The notes below the pieces were generated by a model, which did no database searches, was not told the origin of the DNA, and saw only the letters and a list, made by a program, of their open reading frames with translations. From assembly GCA_044226015.1 (NCBI GenBank), contig JBGAHS010000002.1:787435-851434 (forward strand): 64,000 nucleotides of DNA, in the 5' to 3' direction. A program made the translations under genes and the position numbers. Origin of the DNA: Candidatus Obscuribacteraceae bacterium (GTDB taxonomy: Bacteria; Cyanobacteriota; Vampirovibrionia; Obscuribacterales; Obscuribacteraceae). Shown in pieces: positions 14,969 to 23,093 of the stretch (positions are counted from its first letter, which is position 1; every line of letters starts with the position of its first letter).

Positions 14969-17551
14969 TTAGCGCAATAATTGAGCGGCGTGAGCATTGT
15001 CCTCTTGCGCGCGACGCTCGTCCTTCATGTCTAAAAACAGCTTCGCTCTTTGTTGAAAAACGAAAGCGTCTGTAGAGTCATATTTAATGGCGTTACTAAA
15101 ATCTTCCATGGCTTCTTGGAACGTGCCTGAATCTCGATGAAGCATTCCCTGCAAGCAGTAGAACTCACCCCTGGCAATGACTCTGTATGGTTCTGCTGGA
15201 ATCATCTTTTTTGCTTTATCTAAAAAGCTTGCAGCAGACTTTAGATCTTTTTGCTGCAATGCAGCAAGAGCTTTAGCGTAACAATATTCAAACTCCTCCG
15301 CACCATGCGCGTATTTCCGCGCTCTTTCGGCCAGTTCATTTGCTTGAGTAAAATCACTAGTCATTGCGCAAACGCAGGAAAGATTGAAAAGCGCCGTTCG
15401 GTAATCAGGAAAGATTGACACTGTTTTTTCAAACGCTTTCTTCGCCTCGGCATAACGTTGCAACTTGAATAAACCATGCCCCAAGTAATTCAAAGCTTGA
15501 GTTGAGTCAGGACGAGTCTTAAGCTCTTGCTCAGTGTCGAACACTTCATTTTTCCAATCTCCCTTACAGCCATATAGAAACCCGCGCTGCTCATGGGCAA
15601 ACAAGAGTCCTTTGCAAAGGGACAGAGCCTGTGTTTCCAATTTTATGCCATCTTCAATACGACCCAGCCTTCCAAAAGCGAGCCCCTTGAAGTTGTATGC
15701 CAATGGATTTCTTGGATTTAGCGCGATTGCTTTCTCGCAATCGGAAAGACACTTCTTATAATCCTCCTTGCTGAAGTAAAACCAAGCACGTCCGCTATAA
15801 ACAGATGATTTATCCGCAACAACGTCCAGGGCTTTCTTGTATACAAGCAAACTCTCATTGCTTGCGCCCATCGCTTCATAAGCTCGCGCCATTATCACGT
15901 ATGCATCTGAATTTTTCGGAGCAAAAGTAAGTGCTTTCCTTGCACTTTCTATTCCAGATTTGTAGTCCCTGGCATTGATATAGTCATCCGCAATACCCAA
16001 ATAAACTGTAGCAATTCGATCTGAAGTACGCCCCTCAGACGCCTCCAACTCTGTACTGGAATCCATCCACAAATCAATTGTCTTCTCGCGATGCCTGATA
16101 GCAGTTTGCCAGTCTTTTCTCGATTCGCAAATCGCCGCCTTCATCAGAGTTGCAGAAGGCCAGGTATCTAGTATTTTCTTAGACTCAAGAAAATGCATAG
16201 CGAGATCATAGTTACGCTGGTCGTATGCAACCATTGCTTTTAAATACCAGATTTCATCCGACGCTGGCGGATGAACAAAAATTCTCTCTGCAGTTTTCAG
16301 AATTTCGCTCGCCTCTTCATAGCGTTCAGCTTCAACCAAACACACAACTTGAATTCTGAAAGCCTCGTAATAGTCAGCAGCATTTATTTGCGGGGTGTTC
16401 AGGACCGTGTCGGTGACCTTTGAAGCTTCAGCTAAAGCTTCGGAGTATTGATGACTAGCCAAATTCTTGACCGCATGATTCATCAAAATCTTCAGATTGC
16501 TTCTGGACAAGTAGGCATTGTCTTCACGCTGAGTTTCAGCATCCGTTTTTCCCTTGTAGCACAAGTAGTCGACAGCCTTAATAGACAGCGCAAATAGTGC
16601 CCATCCTCCAAATGGAAGACCTATGCAAAATAGCAGTGCGACAGCCATCTGAGAACCAAACTTGCGTGCAAGCCTGGTCCCCTTTGAGTTCTGAACGGTC
16701 TTACCTTCCGCAGCCAATTCGAGAGCTGCAATGAGTTCCGGCATGTTTTGAAAACGATCTTCCGGTTTCTTCGCAAGTGCTTTTCTCAACACATCAATGA
16801 TGCCGTTTGGAACCGCTGAAGGAAGCTTAGCAAGACGTTGCTCTGGAGATTCATTACTGTGTTTGTAAATCAACCCAATAGAATTGTCCGCATCGAACAG
16901 CTTCGCACCCATCAGCATTTCAAAAATGATGCAACCCAATGCATAAATGTCGCATCGATAGTCAACCGGCTTACCTGCAATAAGCTCGGGAGACATGTAG
17001 CCAGCCGTTCCCAAAAGTAAACCGGTTTTGGTAAGCTTCTGCGATTGCTTCAGGTCGATAAACATTTTCGACAAACCGAAGTCGATGACCTTAACGTAAT
17101 CTGGTTCAGGCTTGTCTAACAGAAATACATTTTCCGGTTTCAAATCGCGATGCACAACACCCTGCGCATGGGCATCTTTCAAACCAATACTAACCTGCAA
17201 GGTGATTTTCACAACCTTTTGCCAGTCCATAGGACCGTCACACATTACACTGCGAAGAGTCTTTCCTTCCATGTACTCGCAAACAGCATACGGAACATCA
17301 TCTACGGTTTTGCCAATGCTATAAATGGTCATGATATGCGGACTGCTTAGTTTTGCCAGTATCTTTGATTCACGAAAAAACCGTTCAAGATCATCAGCAT
17401 TTTCTTGAGCATCAAGATGTGGAATCTTGATTGCCACAGACCTTGAAGCATCCAGCTGGCGAGCATGAAATACCGAAGCCATTCCACCCATTCCGAGAAG
17501 AGAGATGATCTCGAAGCGCTCTTCAAAAATATCGCCAGGATTCAATTTCAT
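14969..17551 (-). CDS. Membrane Ser/Thr protein kinase with TPR sensor region
   Basis: GMGGMA, VAIK, HRDLKPEN, DFG, YMSPE; transmembrane segment; TPRs. ATG at 17551 chosen by alignment with the paralog. Confidence 0.92.
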   Translation of the reverse strand: MKLNPGDIFEERFEIISLLGMGGMASVFHARQLDASRSVAIKIPHLDAQENADDLERFFRESKILAKLSSPHIMTIYSIGKTVDDVPYAVCEYMEGKTLRSVMCDGPMDWQKVVKITLQVSIGLKDAHAQGVVHRDLKPENVFLLDKPEPDYVKVIDFGLSKMFIDLKQSQKLTKTGLLLGTAGYMSPELIAGKPVDYRCDIYALGCIIFEMLMGAKLFDADNSIGLIYKHSNESPEQRLAKLPSAVPNGIIDVLRKALAKKPEDRFQNMPELIAALELAAEGKTVQNSKGTRLARKFGSQMAVALLFCIGLPFGGWALFALSIKAVDYLCYKGKTDAETQREDNAYLSRSNLKILMNHAVKNLASHQYSEALAEASKVTDTVLNTPQINAADYYEAFRIQVVCLVEAERYEEASEILKTAERIFVHPPASDEIWYLKAMVAYDQRNYDLAMHFLESKKILDTWPSATLMKAAICESRKDWQTAIRHREKTIDLWMDSSTELEASEGRTSDRIATVYLGIADDYINARDYKSGIESARKALTFAPKNSDAYVIMARAYEAMGASNESLLVYKKALDVVADKSSVYSGRAWFYFSKEDYKKCLSDCEKAIALNPRNPLAYNFKGLAFGRLGRIEDGIKLETQALSLCKGLLFAHEQRGFLYGCKGDWKNEVFDTEQELKTRPDSTQALNYLGHGLFKLQRYAEAKKAFEKTVSIFPDYRTALFNLSCVCAMTSDFTQANELAERARKYAHGAEEFEYCYAKALAALQQKDLKSAASFLDKAKKMIPAEPYRVIARGEFYCLQGMLHRDSGTFQEAMEDFSNAIKYDSTDAFVFQQRAKLFLDMKDERRAQEDNAHAAQLLR

Positions 17552-17686
17552 TTTGATACTTTGCAGAGAGGGAAGAAGAAAGACCAATGGTGCTGAAAGT
17601 GCGGTGCAAATTGACCATGAAGGATGTGGTCAATTTATGAACCTACCTCTCATATACCGCGCATTAGGGAATAAACTACTACCAAA

Positions 17687-20236
17687 CTAACGCAACAATT
17701 GTGAAGCACGTTCATCGTCTTCTCGCGCACGCGCTTCGTCCTTCATTTGAAGAAACAACTTTGCTCTCTGCTGATAAATGAACGCATCATTGGGCGAGAT
17801 TTCGATTGCCTTACTGAAATCATCCAGTGCTTCAGCAAATTTCCCAGAATCACGATGCAACATTCCTTGCAGGTAATAAAAATCAGCCTTCGTAATGCTG
17901 AGGTATGACTCAATGGGAATTTTCTCTTTTGCCTTAGCAAGGAACGAAGCAGCAGATTTAAGATCCTTTCGCTGTAAACTAGCAAGAGCCTTTGCGCAAA
18001 AATATGGGTACCCCTTATCCTTTGCTGGCACACGCTCAGCAAAGCGATCAGCTTGATCAGGATCATTGGTAAGACTGCAAAGCCAAGACATATTCAGGAG
18101 TGCTGTCCCATACTCAGGAGAGCGAGAAACACACTCCTCCAGAGCCTTTCTAGCCTCTGCGTAGCGCTGCAATTTGTACAAGGAAAATCCCTTATTGTTC
18201 AATGAGATTATTTCACCTGGTCGCAGCTTAAGTTCTGCTTCGCTGTCCTCAAGCTCTTTCCGCCACTCACCCAGACAACCGTACAAATAACCACGGTCCT
18301 CATGAAAGAACCAGGACCTTGGTCCAACAGAGACCGCTTTCTCGTAAAGCTGGATTGCTTCGTTTATGTGACCTTTACGGCTGACTCCAAGCGCCCTCTG
18401 TCCATATCCATAGCTATTCTTAGGGTCTAGCTCGATAGCGCGATCAGCATCTGAGATACACTTCTCATAATCACGCTTAACAAAATGGTACCAGGCACGG
18501 TTACTATAGGCTGATGATACTTCGGGATTTGCTTTAACAGCATCGTCTGAAACCTGCAATGCTTTATCAATGTTTCCCTGGGCCTCGTATACCCGACCCA
18601 GTTGTTGAGACACGAACAGAGAGCTCGGTGAAAGCTCAAGAGCTTTGAGGCAATTTCTTTCGGCTGACTTGTAGTCTTTGGCTTTGCAATAGGCGGCTCC
18701 GATACGCGCATAAAGCGAGGCAATAGAATCAGGGAGAGAATCGTTAACATTGGTAGCCCTGGGCACCCCCGACAAATAACCAATGCTGTTCTGGTATTGG
18801 CAAATCGCTTTAGCCCAGTCTTCGCGGCTCTCATAGACCGATGCTTTAAACCCATAGACTAAGGTTGGTCTCAAAGTTTTGCACTGACCAATGGTCTGCA
18901 AGGCAAAATCATATTTACACTCACGCTGCGCAATTTGGGCCTTGAAATACAAAAGCTCTTCAGACTCTGGTGGCGAAGGAAAATTAGCTTCACTGACTTT
19001 CAAAAAACGCTTCGCCTCTTCCAATCGATCAAGAATAATCAAGCAATCTAGGCGCATGCTAAATGCAGAAAAATACTCACTCTTTTTCAACCGATTTGAT
19101 TTCAGCACTGCGTCTGTAACAGTGCTTACTGCCTTCAGCGCATCCACTAATCTTCCGTTGGTGAAATCACTCTCGGCTCGATTTAGAAGAAGTTTCGCCT
19201 GGCTTCTCGACAAACTGCGGACATCCATCAATTGCCCCTGAGCTTTCTCAATTCCGGCAGGATTCTTGCGCGCTGAACGCTCAGCAGACGTGGACATCCA
19301 GTACAGAATAGGAATTAGAGCAATAACCAGAGCAGCCAGACATATTTGCAAAGAAAGCCCTGTTTTTTGTGATTTCGTAGATTTCTTGTTTTCTGCTGCC
19401 GCTTCAATTGCAACAATAAACTCAGACATGTTTTGAAATCGGTCTTCAGGTTTTTTAGCAAGGGATTTGCGCAAGACTTCTATAAAACCAGCTGGCACTT
19501 TCGAAGAAAGTTTAGCAAGCTGCGGCTCTGGAGATTCATTAGTATGTTTGTAAATCAAACCTATGGAATTATCAGCATCGAATAGTTTTTCACCCATCAG
19601 CATCTCAAAAATGATGCATCCCAGTGCGTAGATATCGCAACGATGATCTACTGGCTTGCCAGCAATGAGCTCAGGAGAAATGTATCCAGCCGTTCCCAGA
19701 AGAAAACCAGTCTTTGTAAGTTTCTGCGACTGCGTGAGGTCGATAAACATCTTCGACAAACCGAAGTCAATGACCTTAACGAAGTCTGGCTCCGGTTTCT
19801 CTAACAAAAAAATATTTTCGGGTTTCAAATCGCGATGCACAATTCCCTGAGAATGCGCATCTTTCAAACCGATACAAATCTGCAAAACAATTCTTGAAAC
19901 ACGTTGCCATGGCATTGGTCCATCATTGATGAGTTTGCGAAGAGTCTGTCCTTCCATGTATTCACAAACAGCGTAAGGAACATCAGCAGCGGTTCTACCA
20001 ATGCTATAGATGGTCATAACGTGGGGACTGTTTAATTTTGCCAGAATTTTTGATTCACGAAAAAATCGCTCCATGTCTTCAGCATTACTCTGTGCATCGA
20101 TGTGTGGGATCTTTATCGCAACATCCCTTGACGCATCTAACTGGCGAGCACGGAAGACTGAACCCATGCCACCAACTCCAAGTAGAGAGATGATCTCAAA
20201 GCGCTCTTCAAAATTATCGCCAGGATTCAGATTCAT
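17687..20236 (-). CDS. Membrane Ser/Thr protein kinase with TPR region (tandem paralog)
   Basis: GVGGMG, HRDLKPEN, DFG; kinase domain and C-terminus closely resemble 14969..17551. Confidence 0.92.
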   Translation of the reverse strand: MNLNPGDNFEERFEIISLLGVGGMGSVFRARQLDASRDVAIKIPHIDAQSNAEDMERFFRESKILAKLNSPHVMTIYSIGRTAADVPYAVCEYMEGQTLRKLINDGPMPWQRVSRIVLQICIGLKDAHSQGIVHRDLKPENIFLLEKPEPDFVKVIDFGLSKMFIDLTQSQKLTKTGFLLGTAGYISPELIAGKPVDHRCDIYALGCIIFEMLMGEKLFDADNSIGLIYKHTNESPEPQLAKLSSKVPAGFIEVLRKSLAKKPEDRFQNMSEFIVAIEAAAENKKSTKSQKTGLSLQICLAALVIALIPILYWMSTSAERSARKNPAGIEKAQGQLMDVRSLSRSQAKLLLNRAESDFTNGRLVDALKAVSTVTDAVLKSNRLKKSEYFSAFSMRLDCLIILDRLEEAKRFLKVSEANFPSPPESEELLYFKAQIAQRECKYDFALQTIGQCKTLRPTLVYGFKASVYESREDWAKAICQYQNSIGYLSGVPRATNVNDSLPDSIASLYARIGAAYCKAKDYKSAERNCLKALELSPSSLFVSQQLGRVYEAQGNIDKALQVSDDAVKANPEVSSAYSNRAWYHFVKRDYEKCISDADRAIELDPKNSYGYGQRALGVSRKGHINEAIQLYEKAVSVGPRSWFFHEDRGYLYGCLGEWRKELEDSEAELKLRPGEIISLNNKGFSLYKLQRYAEARKALEECVSRSPEYGTALLNMSWLCSLTNDPDQADRFAERVPAKDKGYPYFCAKALASLQRKDLKSAASFLAKAKEKIPIESYLSITKADFYYLQGMLHRDSGKFAEALDDFSKAIEISPNDAFIYQQRAKLFLQMKDEARAREDDERASQLLR

Positions 20237-20637
20237 TTGGCTACATCGCGAAATTGAATAACAGCATGGCATTTTTCAGCAGTTCGAAATAGAGGTTTCC
20301 CTCAGACTCTTTTTCAAGCTGAAAACTATCATTGATCATATACCGCGCTTGAAGAAGAAATAAATTGAGAGTTGTGCACAGCAAGCGAGATAAACGGTAA
20401 GTCTTGGGTTGGATACTACCCAGAGAAAGATTCCAAACTCTAGCGCGTTAACAGAAAGAATCGCAGTTCTGAATGTTAGTGCAAGCGCGCAATACAATCA
20501 GCGAAGAACCCTGATGCTGAATTGTGCATTCTTGCAATGCCAGTGCCCGCACACTTTTGCAATGCCAGTCAAATAAAGCAAGCTCAACAGCAACCTCGCG
20601 CATTCAGACCAGGAAACTTAAAAACATAAATTCAAAA

Positions 20638-20708
20638 AGCGACCAGTGGGAATCGAACCCATATCTTCGTCCTGGCAAGGCGGAGTTTTACCATTAAACT
20701 ATGGCCGC
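20638..20708 (-). tRNA. tRNA-Gly(GCC), atypical with three C-A mismatches
   Basis: GCGGCCA TA GTTT AATGGTA AAAC T CCGCC TTGCCAG GACGA AGAT ATGGG TTCGATT CCCAC TGGTCGC T; no encoded CCA. Confidence 0.8.
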
Positions 20709-20713
20709 GTAAA

Positions 20714-20785
20714 AGCCGACAAGAGGATTTGAACCTCCAACAAACTGCTTACGAAGCAGCTGCTCTACCGTTGAGCTATGTCGGC
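20714..20785 (-). tRNA. tRNA-Thr(CGT)
   Basis: GCCGACA TA GCTC AACGGTA GAGC A GCTGC TTCGTAA GCAGT TTGTT GGAGG TTCAAAT CCTCT TGTCGGC T; full cloverleaf. Confidence 0.93.
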
Positions 20786-20787
20786 AA

Positions 20788-20858
20788 AGCCCACAATCAG
20801 AATCGAACTGATGTTTCTTCCTTACCATGGAAGTGTTCTACCATTGAACTATGCGGGC
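20788..20858 (-). tRNA. tRNA-Thr(GGT)
   Basis: GCCCGCA TA GTTC AATGGTA GAAC A CTTCC ATGGTAA GGAAG AAAC ATCAG TTCGATT CTGAT TGTGGGC T; full cloverleaf. Confidence 0.93.
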
Positions 20859-20907
20859 GCAGAACCGCATGACACCATATGCGATGCCATTGCAGGTATA
20901 AAACGAG

Positions 20908-20940
20908 AAATAAAAAAGCCTTCCAGATTACAGGAAGGCT
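20908..20940 (-). terminator. Attenuator terminator upstream of the tRNA cluster
   Basis: Minus strand reads AGCCTTCC-tgtaatct-GGAAGGCT-TTTTTATTT, located between the leader ORF and the tRNAs. Confidence 0.85.
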
Positions 20941-20972
20941 ATCTCAACGAATGCTGATAAACTTCCCCGAAC

Positions 20973-21038
20973 TCAATCAAAGCCTGTACCGGTACCGGTC
21001 GGCGTGAATGTGCTCAAGGTTGTGAAAACAAATTGCAT
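20973..21038 (-). CDS. Putative Thr/Gly-rich leader peptide MQFVFTTLSTFTPTGTGTGFD
   Basis: 21 codons with 7 Thr and 3 Gly; sits between a promoter and an antiterminator/terminator pair. Confidence 0.75.
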   Translation of the reverse strand: MQFVFTTLSTFTPTGTGTGFD

Positions 21039-21063
21039 CGTTGCACCATTTCTAAGTAAAACC

Positions 21064-21093
21064 ATCGTATAACGCAAAGAGGAAATTTGTCAA
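21064..21093 (-). promoter_or_regulatory. Sigma70-like promoter of the leader-tRNA unit
   Basis: TTGACA-N18-TACGAT on the minus strand; the -35 lies inside the inverted repeat at 21078..21107. Confidence 0.6.
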
Positions 21094-21134
21094 TGCAAAT
21101 TTCCTCTCCTTAATTGATTAAGAACACAAGAAAA

Positions 21135-22973
21135 TCATTTGGGTTCTTGCGCTGGCGCTGGCTCATCTGTCGTTTTCGCAGCAGGCGCGCCCAGGCTCTT
21201 GAAGCGCATCGGGAAATTCAAACTCTTATTGCTGCTCACATATGAACGAAACATAGACTTCCCTTCTGGCGACCACAAGGTAAGTTGATTTGGCACATCG
21301 ACAAAGACAGCAAGAATATTGGGAAAGGTTAACGGTACAACCTTATTGAACATAGTACTCACCCAGGCGGCTTCATCAAGCGGGTTTCTATTCCTGAAAG
21401 GAGCCGCCTTAACCAACATTACTGGAGTCGTGAGCCAGCTTGAAGTACGCAGCTCTGCCATAAATGGCTCAATTGACTCCATGATGTTGGGACCTTTCGG
21501 ATCATGCCCCGGATCAGTACCAATCGCATTTATGCCCAACCAATCCATCACGCCGGCACCAGGCCAATAGTACTCCAGCTTGTTCCAGCTTTGATTGCCC
21601 GCATCTGATTCATCGGGAAACTTCCCGGCGTTTTTATTGCCATGAAAAGCTCCTGCAGAGCTGAACATCACGATAGAGCTTGCGTTGCTCTCAGTTAAAA
21701 CTTTGCTCAATCGCTTCCACGCATCCCGAACCCTCTCGGGTCCATCAGGAATGTTAGCGTCCCCGTACTGATTGCTCAATTCAGCACTGCTTCCTTTTGG
21801 TCCAGAATAAACACCCTTCTCTAATCGTTTTTTGATTTCATCATTTCTCTTGGACTCAGGCATGTCTTTCAGCTTCGGGTCAAGAATTGAATAATATGGC
21901 GTATGACCATCAGCACCGAATGCGGTGGCAGCAGCTTCGCGATCGAATTCTGAAAACAACCCGAGCATGACCGGCGACTTCTCAGGTGCCAGCTCTTTTA
22001 CATTCGCCTTGAAGTAATCGTCCATCTTGCCAGAAGCCACGTCTGCGACAGTCATAAACTCGCCCTTAGCACTAGCATAATTGGGATCTTTCGACCTAGC
22101 ATCACTGTCTACGAGCTTCAGAAGTATAACTGGCAAGCGCCCCTCAAGAATTCGCGTCTTAGCCCATAGGCTCAGCGGCGGGCTAAATGGAATTCCCAGA
22201 GAAGGGTTATTTGCCTCCGCAAAATTAGCAGGCTTCCCATCAGGCGCCTGCATGTAGTGCTCAGCCATCTCCATCTGCAGCGGCTTACCGCAGCCCTCGT
22301 CGATTAGTGCGACAGAGGGACGATCGCCTGTAAGATACATTTGCTCATTTGGCGTATCGCCCATGTAAACCAATTTAGGCAATGAGACCAGTCGCTTGTT
22401 TTTGCATGTATCAAAAAGTTGGGTCTTACCGAAATCAGCATCTGGGGCTCGTTCAATCAAACCTTCAATTCGCTCAAGCTCCGAAGCAATCTTATCCTTA
22501 TCCCAAAGCCCCAGCGAAGTATACCGAACCAGCTTGTCACTAATATGAAACGCGCGGTCAAAATCTTTGTTCAAAATCAAATCATCAAACTGAGCGCATG
22601 CTTTTTTGTAGCGCTCTTGCAGGGGAGCCAACTCATCTGCTGTCGGTTCTTTATGATCTTTCGCTATTGCATCTAGAAATTCCATGTCGGCCTTGACCCG
22701 AGCATCGCTCGCCCCTGAACCAACGAAAGCAATCTGGTCAATAGCCTTTTGCATTCGCGCACCTAGCGCCGGGTTCGACTGTTTAATCGAATCGCACTTT
22801 GCCTGAGCCTTCTTGACCAGCTCTTCTGCGCGAGCATCTCTCTTGGCTAAATTTTTCACCTTCTCAACACGCAATTCTTCAATAGTAGTTGGCGCACTGC
22901 TGACCGCGGCGAAAGCAGTGCCGGCTCCCAGCAATAGCGACAAACTCAAAGTAATTACGGCGCTTCGCTTCAT
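21135..22973 (-). CDS. Exported protein with GH26-like C-terminal domain
   Basis: Signal peptide ending AFA; YWPGAGVMDWLGIN resembles the GH26 YYPGDxxVDWxGxD motif. Confidence 0.65.
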   Translation of the reverse strand: MKRSAVITLSLSLLLGAGTAFAAVSSAPTTIEELRVEKVKNLAKRDARAEELVKKAQAKCDSIKQSNPALGARMQKAIDQIAFVGSGASDARVKADMEFLDAIAKDHKEPTADELAPLQERYKKACAQFDDLILNKDFDRAFHISDKLVRYTSLGLWDKDKIASELERIEGLIERAPDADFGKTQLFDTCKNKRLVSLPKLVYMGDTPNEQMYLTGDRPSVALIDEGCGKPLQMEMAEHYMQAPDGKPANFAEANNPSLGIPFSPPLSLWAKTRILEGRLPVILLKLVDSDARSKDPNYASAKGEFMTVADVASGKMDDYFKANVKELAPEKSPVMLGLFSEFDREAAATAFGADGHTPYYSILDPKLKDMPESKRNDEIKKRLEKGVYSGPKGSSAELSNQYGDANIPDGPERVRDAWKRLSKVLTESNASSIVMFSSAGAFHGNKNAGKFPDESDAGNQSWNKLEYYWPGAGVMDWLGINAIGTDPGHDPKGPNIMESIEPFMAELRTSSWLTTPVMLVKAAPFRNRNPLDEAAWVSTMFNKVVPLTFPNILAVFVDVPNQLTLWSPEGKSMFRSYVSSNKSLNFPMRFKSLGAPAAKTTDEPAPAQEPK

Positions 22974-23093
22974 TATGCATCCCCCAATGAACGACAGTAA
23001 TTCCTTGCGCTGATACGAGAAGACGCAGGATCTCTCCTGCGTCATTCCCAGATCTCGAACTTTCAATTCAAACAAAAGCCAAGGCTGTCAGAT

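Follow-up and report, generated by a model that had tools for sequence, protein, structure and literature searches.

A putative leader-peptide attenuator upstream of supernumerary tRNA genes in Obscuribacteraceae

Results

A tRNA cassette with the parts of an attenuator

The stretch of DNA analyzed here (64,000 nucleotides of contig JBGAHS010000002.1 from the Candidatus Obscuribacteraceae assembly GCA_044226015.1, hereafter the window) carries on its minus strand a small cassette of tRNA genes. A promoter-like site is followed by a 21-codon leader open reading frame (ORF), an antiterminator/terminator pair, and the genes for tRNA-Thr(GGT), tRNA-Thr(CGT), and tRNA-Gly(GCC), in that order. We think it probable that this supernumerary tRNA operon is controlled by ribosome-mediated (leader-peptide) transcription attenuation. 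In silico analysis establishes which parts are present and how they are ordered, that they are conserved, that the leader has a biased codon content, that its folds compete, and that the tRNA genes are spare copies. A reading of the DNA letters alone (the sequence-only reading) had proposed the same elements at the same positions, and ARAGORN, Rfam, consensus scans, and translation of the ORF all recovered them. All of the computational checks that it suggested favored its interpretation.

The three tRNA genes lie at 20858-20788 (Thr(GGT), 71 nt), 20785-20714 (Thr(CGT), 72 nt), and 20708-20638 (Gly(GCC), 71 nt) on the minus strand and none encodes a CCA end. Each was called by ARAGORN and scored well above the 29-bit gathering score of the Rfam tRNA model (66.9, 70.8, and 50.8 bits, respectively), the Gly(GCC) gene having a weak anticodon stem with 3 of 5 pairs. 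They are the only Rfam matches within the window. The sigma-70-type promoter-like site (21064-21093, minus strand) agrees with the consensus at 10 of 12 positions (6/6 in the -35 hexamer and 4/6 in the -10 hexamer, separated by an 18-nt spacer). Its -35 and -10 columns are kept in an alignment of four genomes (A1), and the leader transcript would start near 21056-21058. The leader ORF (20973-21038, minus strand) has 21 codons plus a stop codon, seven of them for Thr, four for Phe, and three for Gly, and lacks a strong Shine-Dalgarno sequence.

The 5′ strand of the antiterminator (region 2, 20956-20972, minus strand) begins directly 3′ of the stop codon, and thus inside the footprint of a terminating ribosome. 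Its 3′ strand (region 3, 20931-20943, minus strand) is the terminator 5′ arm plus 3 nt upstream. The intrinsic terminator (20911-20940, minus strand) consists of a hairpin at 20940-20917, with an 8-bp stem containing five G-C pairs and an 8-nt loop, followed by six T residues (predicted energy, -13.6 kcal/mol).

Consensus scans over 3 kb gave three promoter-like sites (4.1 +/- 2.0 in shuffled sequences) and three terminator-like sites (2.9 +/- 1.7 in shuffled sequences). As the scans alone did no better than shuffles, the case rests on composition and conservation. Fourteen of the 20 codons following the initiating Met codon of the window leader encode Thr, Phe, or Gly, where 3.4 are expected (binomial p = 2.7e-7), and the folding stability of the leader RNA exceeds that of shuffled sequences (z = -3.3). 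All five homologous clusters found elsewhere, distributed over two genera, keep the whole unit; conservation of the leader at homologous loci had been the expectation of the sequence-only reading. Given the conservation and composition, a chance origin of the cassette was rejected.

Codon content of the leader and its match to the tRNAs

The window leader contains ACC three times, ACG once, ACA three times, GGT twice, GGC once, and TTT and TTC twice each. The Thr and Gly counts are those of the sequence-only reading, which had not stressed the four Phe codons. We refer to the genome of the window as G000; genus g1 comprises G000, G002, G003, and G005 and genus g43 comprises G084 and G085. Codons for the amino acids of the set (Phe, Gly, and Thr, plus Lys in G002) make up 14/20, 12/20, 13/21, and 16/21 of the genus g1 leaders, and Phe, Gly, and Thr codons 11/21 and 16/20 of the genus g43 leaders. 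The p values of this bias range from 2.5e-4 to 1.4e-9 in the six leaders, and the bias persists in their poorly conserved 5′ halves, where 6-9 of 11-12 codons belong to the set.

All six leaders keep the start codon, the frame, a length of 21-22 codons, and the position of the stop codon relative to the next helix. Their N-terminal halves are alike in composition, not in sequence, whereas C-terminal residues are conserved across the six. The G005 and G003 leaders, which form the closest pair, are set apart by the insertion of a single Thr codon, a synonymous change, and a replacement of Ser by Pro. From such features the leader looks translated and codon-tuned.

The sequence-only reading had matched the ACC, ACG, GGT, and GGC codons of the leader to the tRNAs of the cluster and noted that ACA needs a tRNA from outside it. 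The match holds by amino acid, not strictly by anticodon: ACA accounts for 7/25 of the Thr codons in the four genus g1 leaders, about the genomic ACA usage of 30%. All 12 Gly codons are GGT or GGC, a uniformity that adds little because they occupy three aligned positions inside a conserved hairpin. This small hairpin lies in the 3′ half of the ORF (codons 12-19; 20982-21003, minus strand), where the alignment fold (A3) gives eight pairs, five of them invariant in four sequences. It is a possible pause element.

Phe is part of the ancestral amino-acid set: the three genus g1 relatives carry a tRNA-Phe(GAA) gene and the window leader keeps its four Phe codons above a cluster that has no Phe tRNA. 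The 48-nt spacer that precedes the window tRNAs (20859-20906, minus strand) aligns weakly (A1) with the tRNA-Phe(GAA) genes of the relatives, with an internal gap of ~30 nt. Neither ARAGORN nor Rfam called a tRNA in the spacer; it is possibly a decayed Phe tRNA, a suggestion made with low confidence.

Competing antiterminator and terminator folds

Pairing of 20967-20956 with 20943-20932 at 11 of 12 positions had been put forward as the antiterminator, and the count stands, two of the pairs being G-U. In the window the antiterminator is the weaker of the two helices (-12.4 versus -13.6 kcal/mol for the terminator). Region 1 (21012-21019, minus strand; codons 7-9) pairs with 20972-20965 in the minimum free energy fold of the ribosome-free RNA, sequestering the antiterminator strand and so forming an anti-antiterminator.

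The dependence of these folds on ribosome position was modeled by cutting the RNA before the terminator 3′ arm and masking 28 nt as the ribosome; the values that follow are antiterminator probabilities. In the window the probability was 0.05 without a ribosome, 0.12-0.14 with the ribosomal A site positioned at codons 1-4, and 0.45-0.81 at codons 5-19, and at codon 20, codon 21, and the stop codon it was 0.19, 0.07, and 0.10. The G003 leader behaved as a sharper switch (0.00 without a ribosome, 0.84-0.90 at codons 3-16, and 0.00-0.01 at the last codons and stop), and that of G002 gave 0.31 without a ribosome, 0.69-0.92 at codons 1-19, 0.51 and 0.37 at codons 20-21, and then 0.00. In G005 the probability was 0.88 without a ribosome and 0.83-0.90 up to codon 18, fell to 0.59 at codon 19, and then to 0.15, 0.00, and 0.00. 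The genus g43 leaders gave 0.83 (G085) and 0.74 (G084) without a ribosome. With the ribosome in the body of the G085 ORF the value was 0.56-0.92, falling to 0.00 at the last codons and stop; for G084 it was 0.68-0.92 at codons 1-16 and 18-20 and 0.08 at codon 17, with 0.51, 0.23, and 0.19 at the last codons and stop. Hence, as proposed from the sequence, alternative folds exist and depend on ribosome position, although the window equilibrium still favors the terminator.

The non-trivial point of this test is that the partner of the terminator 5′ arm begins 0-6 nt past the stop codon in all six leaders. When the segment between stop codon and terminator was shuffled (100 trials per leader), the pairing of the terminator 5′ arm with the 28 nt from the stop codon was reached by 0, 0, 0, 3, 3, and 0 shuffles per 100. 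The terminator helix is kept in the four-genome alignment and also in G084 and G085. Terminator sequences vary between lineages and the upstream mimic varies with them.

Full-length RNAs were also considered at equilibrium. The G003 equilibrium flipped cleanly: the terminator probability was 0.00-0.01 with the ribosome at codons 8-15, whereas it stood at 0.80-0.94 when no ribosome was present and when the ribosome was at codons 1-3 or anywhere between codon 17 and the stop codon. The G005 and G002 leaders gave a partial flip. Since the window antiterminator is weaker than the terminator and the equilibrium there does not flip, a switch in the window would have to be kinetic.

Distribution of the cassette

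Among 41 relatives searched at the DNA level, three genomes of the same genus contain the cluster, each with a homologous leader ORF and terminator and each with the additional Phe(GAA) tRNA as the first gene. When 104 genomes of the family were searched with the DNA of the tRNA cluster, nine matched at E <= 1e-12. Six of these have this cluster type, four in genus g1 plus both genomes of genus g43; the remaining three are long arrays matched through single tRNAs. All six have, upstream of the tRNAs, a 21-22-codon ORF with a mimic of the terminator arm 0-6 nt past its end and a strong terminator after that. The genus g43 clusters encode Thr(GGT), Thr(TGT), and Gly(GCC), with Thr(CGT) in addition in G085, and their leader and terminator lie ~150 nt and ~700 nt upstream of the tRNA clusters. 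The G085 locus (L277) also contains ~400 nt of tandem repeats (units of ~60 nt; ~640-1290), located between the leader-terminator and the Thr/Gly cluster, ~210-860 nt upstream of the first tRNA (1500). These resemble repeats found at another spare tRNA cluster of G000, on contig C12 (see below).

In the three genus g1 relatives ~10-25 nt separate the T run from the first tRNA, as read on the sequence letters, and a consensus scan found no promoter-like site in the 55-nt gap between terminator and tRNAs of the window. The sequence-only reading had assumed that no separate promoter lies there, and these spacings agree. Comparison of the window with the genus g1 relatives showed that the cassette alone is common to them and that the flanking genes differ, so by this comparison the cassette moves as a whole between unrelated contexts. 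No gene for a biosynthetic or tRNA-using enzyme was linked to it in the four contexts examined, and the tRNAs are its only conserved cargo. Pfam found no mobile-element family in the three window ORFs that flank the cassette nor in the 14 ORFs that flank the cassettes of the relatives. About 1 kb downstream of the G003 cassette is a 460-amino-acid ORF (L064, 7314-8696, minus strand) with WHH and colicin-like DNase/tRNase domains (Pfam E = 6.9e-16 and 1.6e-11), an ORF absent at the other loci.

Independent sequence data also contain the locus. A metagenome contig from an independent study spans 801 nt of it with nine differences, two of which fall in the ORF (codon 11, Phe to Leu; codon 15, GGT to the synonymous GGC). 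None of the sequencing runs listed as containing the stretch is an RNA run. Contigs of three further sequencing runs cover the tRNAs only in part. One contig (run X8) still has the tRNAs as well as the terminal part of the upstream ORF and 32 nt at the promoter, while what stands in place of the leader (20861-21195) does not align at 80% identity; it may come from a closer relative that has a diverged leader in the same context.

The exact leader motif was found at 65 loci in 185,579 species genomes. Three of these carry the cassette, and their records are titled as metagenome-assembled genomes of Candidatus Obscuribacterales or Obscuribacteraceae. Of the others, one has a lone tRNA-Gln gene ~760 nt away and 61 have no tRNA. 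This motif misses the genus g43 leaders, which came from the tRNA-cluster search. Allowing two mismatches across the 104 family genomes gave about as many matches as a reversed-pattern control, and only exact matches stood beside tRNAs. A search of viral contigs with the exact motif gave one match, without a tRNA. A distant blastn search of phage records with the 1-kb region matched 29 records, each over at most 15% of the query and through single tRNAs only. A metagenome scan with the T-arm/acceptor pattern of Thr(GGT) returned at least 104 stretches; none of the 80 examined was of this cluster type. These were ordinary Thr tRNAs from other organisms, and the pattern was a poor choice.

The cluster tRNAs are spare, divergent copies

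The G000 assembly (8.19 Mb in 13 contigs) has 72 tRNA genes, and second genes for Thr(GGT), Thr(CGT), and Gly(GCC) are located elsewhere in it, in keeping with the earlier proposal that the cluster genes are backups. Where non-cluster copies were recovered from G002, G003, or G005, they share 95-100% identity with those of G000; the G005 genome, which is 70% complete, yielded none for Thr(GGT) or Gly(GCC). The cluster tRNAs are 74-93% identical between G000 and the same three genomes and only 61-76% identical to their own housekeeping counterparts. They are richer in A+T, have no encoded CCA end, and differ from the housekeeping tRNAs in their anticodon arms.

Some of the cluster genes are unusual. 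The anticodon stems of the Gly(GCC) genes are weak, and across the six genomes their position 33 reads T, C, C, A, T, and T, whereas U33 is almost universal in tRNAs. In G002 a Lys(CTT) gene (L006, 1578-1651) occupies the Thr(CGT) slot. Given its 78-80% identity to Thr(CGT) of the other genomes and its altered discriminator base, we regard it as a remoulded Thr tRNA, an apparent switch of both anticodon and identity. The G002 leader has two Lys codons, compared with none or one in the other leaders.

Other spare tRNA clusters have leaders of their own composition

Two further spare clusters of G000 are preceded by leaders enriched in the amino acids of the respective cluster. A Glu(TTC)-Asp(GTC)-His(GTG) cluster on contig C9 (547013-547500; L070, 1570-2047) follows a 41-codon ORF that is rich in His, Asp, and Glu (14/40 own-set codons) and has a good Shine-Dalgarno sequence. 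Homologous leaders stand before clusters of the Glu/Asp/His/Gln type in five relatives, and in the one relative whose cluster adds Asn and Tyr tRNAs the leader likewise includes codons for Asn (four) and Tyr (two). Past the ORF of the Glu/Asp/His leaders no obvious terminator is seen, and a conserved G+C-rich hairpin lies within the ORF; given the lack of an obvious terminator, the read-out may differ there. One cluster of this kind (Glu/Asn/Asp/His/Tyr/Gln, in G013) ends with an ARAGORN tRNA call having a four-base anticodon ('???', ccga; L073, 2124-2199).

The other cluster, Leu(TAA)-Leu(AAG)-Tyr(GTA) on contig C12 (542805-543730; L068 and L259), lies downstream of a Leu/Tyr-rich ORF of ~21 codons and of a 7-codon ORF in which 6/6 codons following the Met codon are Leu or Tyr. 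About 300 nt of 33-nt tandem repeats separate these leaders from the tRNAs. Four relatives have Leu/Tyr-rich leaders, accompanied by terminators, before clusters of 4-5 Leu tRNAs, three of which also have a Tyr tRNA. The Leu tRNAs of the spare clusters (G000 C12 and C10; L260-L264) are 74-78 nt long without a long variable arm, and the dispersed Leu tRNA genes are 80-88 nt, except for a 67-nt Leu(GAG) call on contig C2.

In a test of the three cluster types, the 650 nt upstream were scanned, and each ORF with 6-60 codons beyond its start codon was scored for three amino-acid sets. At 15/15 loci the lowest p value fell on the set of the locus's own type, so that the tracking of the downstream tRNAs by leader composition, which the sequence-only reading had proposed looking for, extends across three unrelated cluster types. 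The margin was one to five orders of magnitude (near 100-fold for L071 and L073), apart from L089, where it was weakest at ~3-fold (6.9e-3 for its own set versus 1.9e-2 for the Phe/Thr/Gly/Lys set). As the genomes are kin, the 15 loci amount to perhaps a dozen independent cases at most.

On contig C10 of G000, 22 tRNA genes form a long array that extends over 2.25 kb (356333-358584; L069). A promoter-like site immediately precedes its first gene, and the 330 nt upstream contain no codon-matched leader. When this array is added to the three small clusters, nearly every amino acid has a second tRNA.

Neighbors of the cassette

A perfect 12-nt inverted repeat (21078-21107; arms 21078-21089 and 21096-21107, 6 nt apart and 100% complementary) overlaps the -35 hexamer. 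Either an operator or a terminator for the upstream 646-amino-acid ORF (21135-23075), which matches no Pfam family, is conceivable, and the repeat is not kept in the relatives (alignment A1). Downstream, the three tRNA genes are the only genes before the next unit, a pair of tandem paralogous Ser/Thr protein kinases with long TPR tails on the minus strand (14969-17587 and 17687-20272).

Discussion

The events that attenuation would entail at this locus can be laid out as follows. Transcription would start near 21057 and a ribosome would translate the 21-codon leader. If the Thr, Phe, and Gly codons are decoded rapidly, the ribosome would be at the last codons or the stop codon, covering the strand just past the stop; the terminator (20940-20917) would then form and transcription would end before the tRNAs. 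A ribosome lagging anywhere between about codon 5 and codon 19 would leave that strand free to pair with the terminator 5′ arm, and the resulting antiterminator would let RNA polymerase read through, such that Thr(GGT), Thr(CGT), and Gly(GCC) would be made and processed from the transcript. The unit would sense how much functional aminoacyl-tRNA is available for Thr, Gly, and Phe and would respond with more tRNA of the same kinds, thereby acting as a homeostat of the tRNA pool. What we infer in this scheme is that the leader is translated, in which direction and how strongly the unit responds, and what triggers it naturally, including the depleted or damaged tRNAs that the sequence-only reading named as the signal.

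Several observations weigh against attenuation of this kind. The cassette is known from only six genomes that represent ~4-5 independent lineages of one bacterial family. The window terminator had a probability of 0.95-0.97 in every ribosome state of the full-length equilibrium and thus never flips, and in G005 (0.88) and G085 (0.83) the antiterminator forms with no ribosome at all. Part of the fall in antiterminator probability at the stop codon follows from the design of the test, as the mask covers the strand next to the stop. No clear Shine-Dalgarno sequence precedes the four genus g1 leaders. The codon match also has its blemishes: genus g1 clusters are unable to read the ACA codons that their leaders contain (the 7/25 given above), Phe codons are retained in three of the six leaders despite the lack of a Phe tRNA in their cluster, three Ser codons and one Lys codon in the G005 and G003 leaders have no matching tRNAs, and that of G002 still has two ACG codons though its Thr(CGT) gene was lost. 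Moreover, as the Thr/Gly-rich 3′ half of the ORF overlaps the conserved hairpin, RNA structure could explain part of the bias. Finally, extra tRNA would not relieve plain amino-acid starvation, so the benefit hinges on the inferred trigger.

Other explanations of the same features have to be considered. The leader might report translational stress in general, responding to any slowing of ribosomes (by antibiotics, ribosome damage, or cold), with the codon bias being historical or serving to tune sensitivity. Such a sensor would suit the mask model, in which the antiterminator is freed by stalling nearly anywhere between codons 5 and 19, as well as the imperfect codon match, which holds at the amino-acid level only, and two reports describe the long spare tRNA operon of Anabaena as induced under translational stress (PMC8421152, PMC10272220). 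However, a general sensor needs no correspondence between leader and cargo, whereas three unrelated leader types carry the amino acids of their own clusters at 15/15 loci, and the bias is retained in the fast-changing 5′ halves; we therefore consider this explanation unlikely. More improbable still is an untranslated, structured leader whose hairpins bind a protein, a small molecule, or a tRNA and whose open frame is a by-product. The conserved hairpin that forms the 3′ half of the ORF, the lack of a clear ribosome-binding site in the genus g1 leaders, and folding better than that of shuffles (z = -3.3) would all fit, but the frame, the start codon, and the stop-to-antiterminator position are kept in 6/6 leaders despite their diverging 5′ halves, and the sole indel in the closest pair is one whole codon. 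Furthermore, there was no T-box or other Rfam match (best, 21 bits versus a gathering score of 43), and the amino-acid bias recurs in two other leader families that have different structures.

We give very little credence to two further explanations. In one, the ORF is a separate gene for a functional 21-residue peptide with its own terminator, the tRNAs being expressed independently or by constitutive leak-through. Although C-terminal residues are conserved across the six leaders and the terminator is strong, the N-terminal halves are conserved only in composition, the ~10-25 nt between T run and tRNA in three relatives are too short for a promoter, and the cassette travels whole between unrelated contexts. 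In the other, which we find just as hard to credit, the leader is a classical sensor of starvation for Thr, Gly, or Phe and the tRNAs are passengers or have a non-translational use. Here the amino-acid-level match, ACA codons included, is accommodated, as are the oddities of the Gly(GCC) tRNAs, with their weak anticodon stems and a position 33 that is not T in 3/6 genomes. Nevertheless, the four contexts examined have no linked gene for a biosynthetic or tRNA-using enzyme, and the tRNAs are the only conserved cargo. The idea that the leader peptide is the substrate of a tRNA-dependent peptide-modifying enzyme was rejected, as no such gene is linked and the contexts differ.

Ribosome-mediated attenuation is the textbook coupling of amino-acid supply to enzyme synthesis, and leader-peptide attenuators control amino-acid operons and pheST (trpL, hisL, thrL, pheL, leuL, ilvL, and pheM). 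The cassette shares with these a promoter, a short ORF with regulatory codons, and exclusive antiterminator and terminator hairpins that are read through ribosome position (here in silico), and like thrL or ilvL its leader is multivalent, with several amino acids in one leader. In contrast to the classical attenuators, the cassette carries tRNA genes in place of genes for biosynthetic enzymes or synthetases, its regulatory codons do not stand in tandem runs but are dispersed, and the host is a non-photosynthetic relative of cyanobacteria. No Rfam leader family reached its gathering score in the window; a permissive scan of 20850-21110 gave Phe_leader at 17.1 bits (gathering score, 55) and did not list Thr_leader. 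T-box riboswitches likewise use a terminator/antiterminator leader to report the state of one tRNA species, but they bind uncharged tRNA directly and without translation, whereas the leader of the cassette has a conserved frame and gave no match to the T-box model either in the scan of the window or in the permissive scan. The unit is best classed as a new form of ribosome-mediated attenuation, with supernumerary tRNA genes as the genes under its probable control. The openly accessible full-text literature searched contained no description of leader-peptide control of tRNA genes, the single match of one search concerning pheL.

The nearest parallels in cargo are spare tRNAs of other bacteria and of phages. 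The trn operon of Anabaena PCC 7120 is described as a set of supernumerary tRNAs induced when translation is impaired (PMC8421152, PMC10272220), and the main text of these papers mentions no leader, attenuation, or terminator. The likeness lies in supernumerary tRNA genes kept apart from the housekeeping set, and G000 has a long array as well, the 22 genes on C10. However, the operons considered here are not arrays of tens of genes: they have three genes in the window and three or four in the relatives, and are grouped by amino acid. Their proposed control would be exerted by a cis-acting leader peptide rather than by a repressor such as the TrcR of Anabaena. Phage-encoded tRNAs are described as replacing host tRNAs cut by anticodon nucleases (PMC10264068, PMC11555353, PMC11464382). 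These also are extra, sequence-divergent tRNAs, and the differences between the anticodon arms of the cluster tRNAs and those of the housekeeping tRNAs would fit a backup role. Unlike the phage tRNAs, the cluster tRNAs are chromosomal, bacterial, and apparently leader-gated.

A broader proposal can be offered only tentatively, and we hold it to be more doubtful than attenuation of the window cassette itself. It is that Obscuribacteraceae maintain a second, fast-evolving set of tRNAs in amino-acid-themed operons (Phe/Thr/Gly, Glu/Asp/His/Gln, and Leu/Tyr), each gated by a codon-matched leader. Jointly these might provide per-codon surveillance that detects loss of or damage to housekeeping tRNAs, for example by the tRNA-cutting toxins of competitors or phages, and replaces them with divergent backups.

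If attenuation of these spare tRNAs is correct, the cells would gauge how fast chosen codons are decoded and adjust the tRNA pool itself, a feedback loop acting on the translation machinery. It would explain how supernumerary tRNA genes can stay silent and yet be useful, it would provide a compact natural sensor of codon-specific translation speed, and it would tie these bacteria to current work on tRNA-targeting toxins and backup tRNAs.

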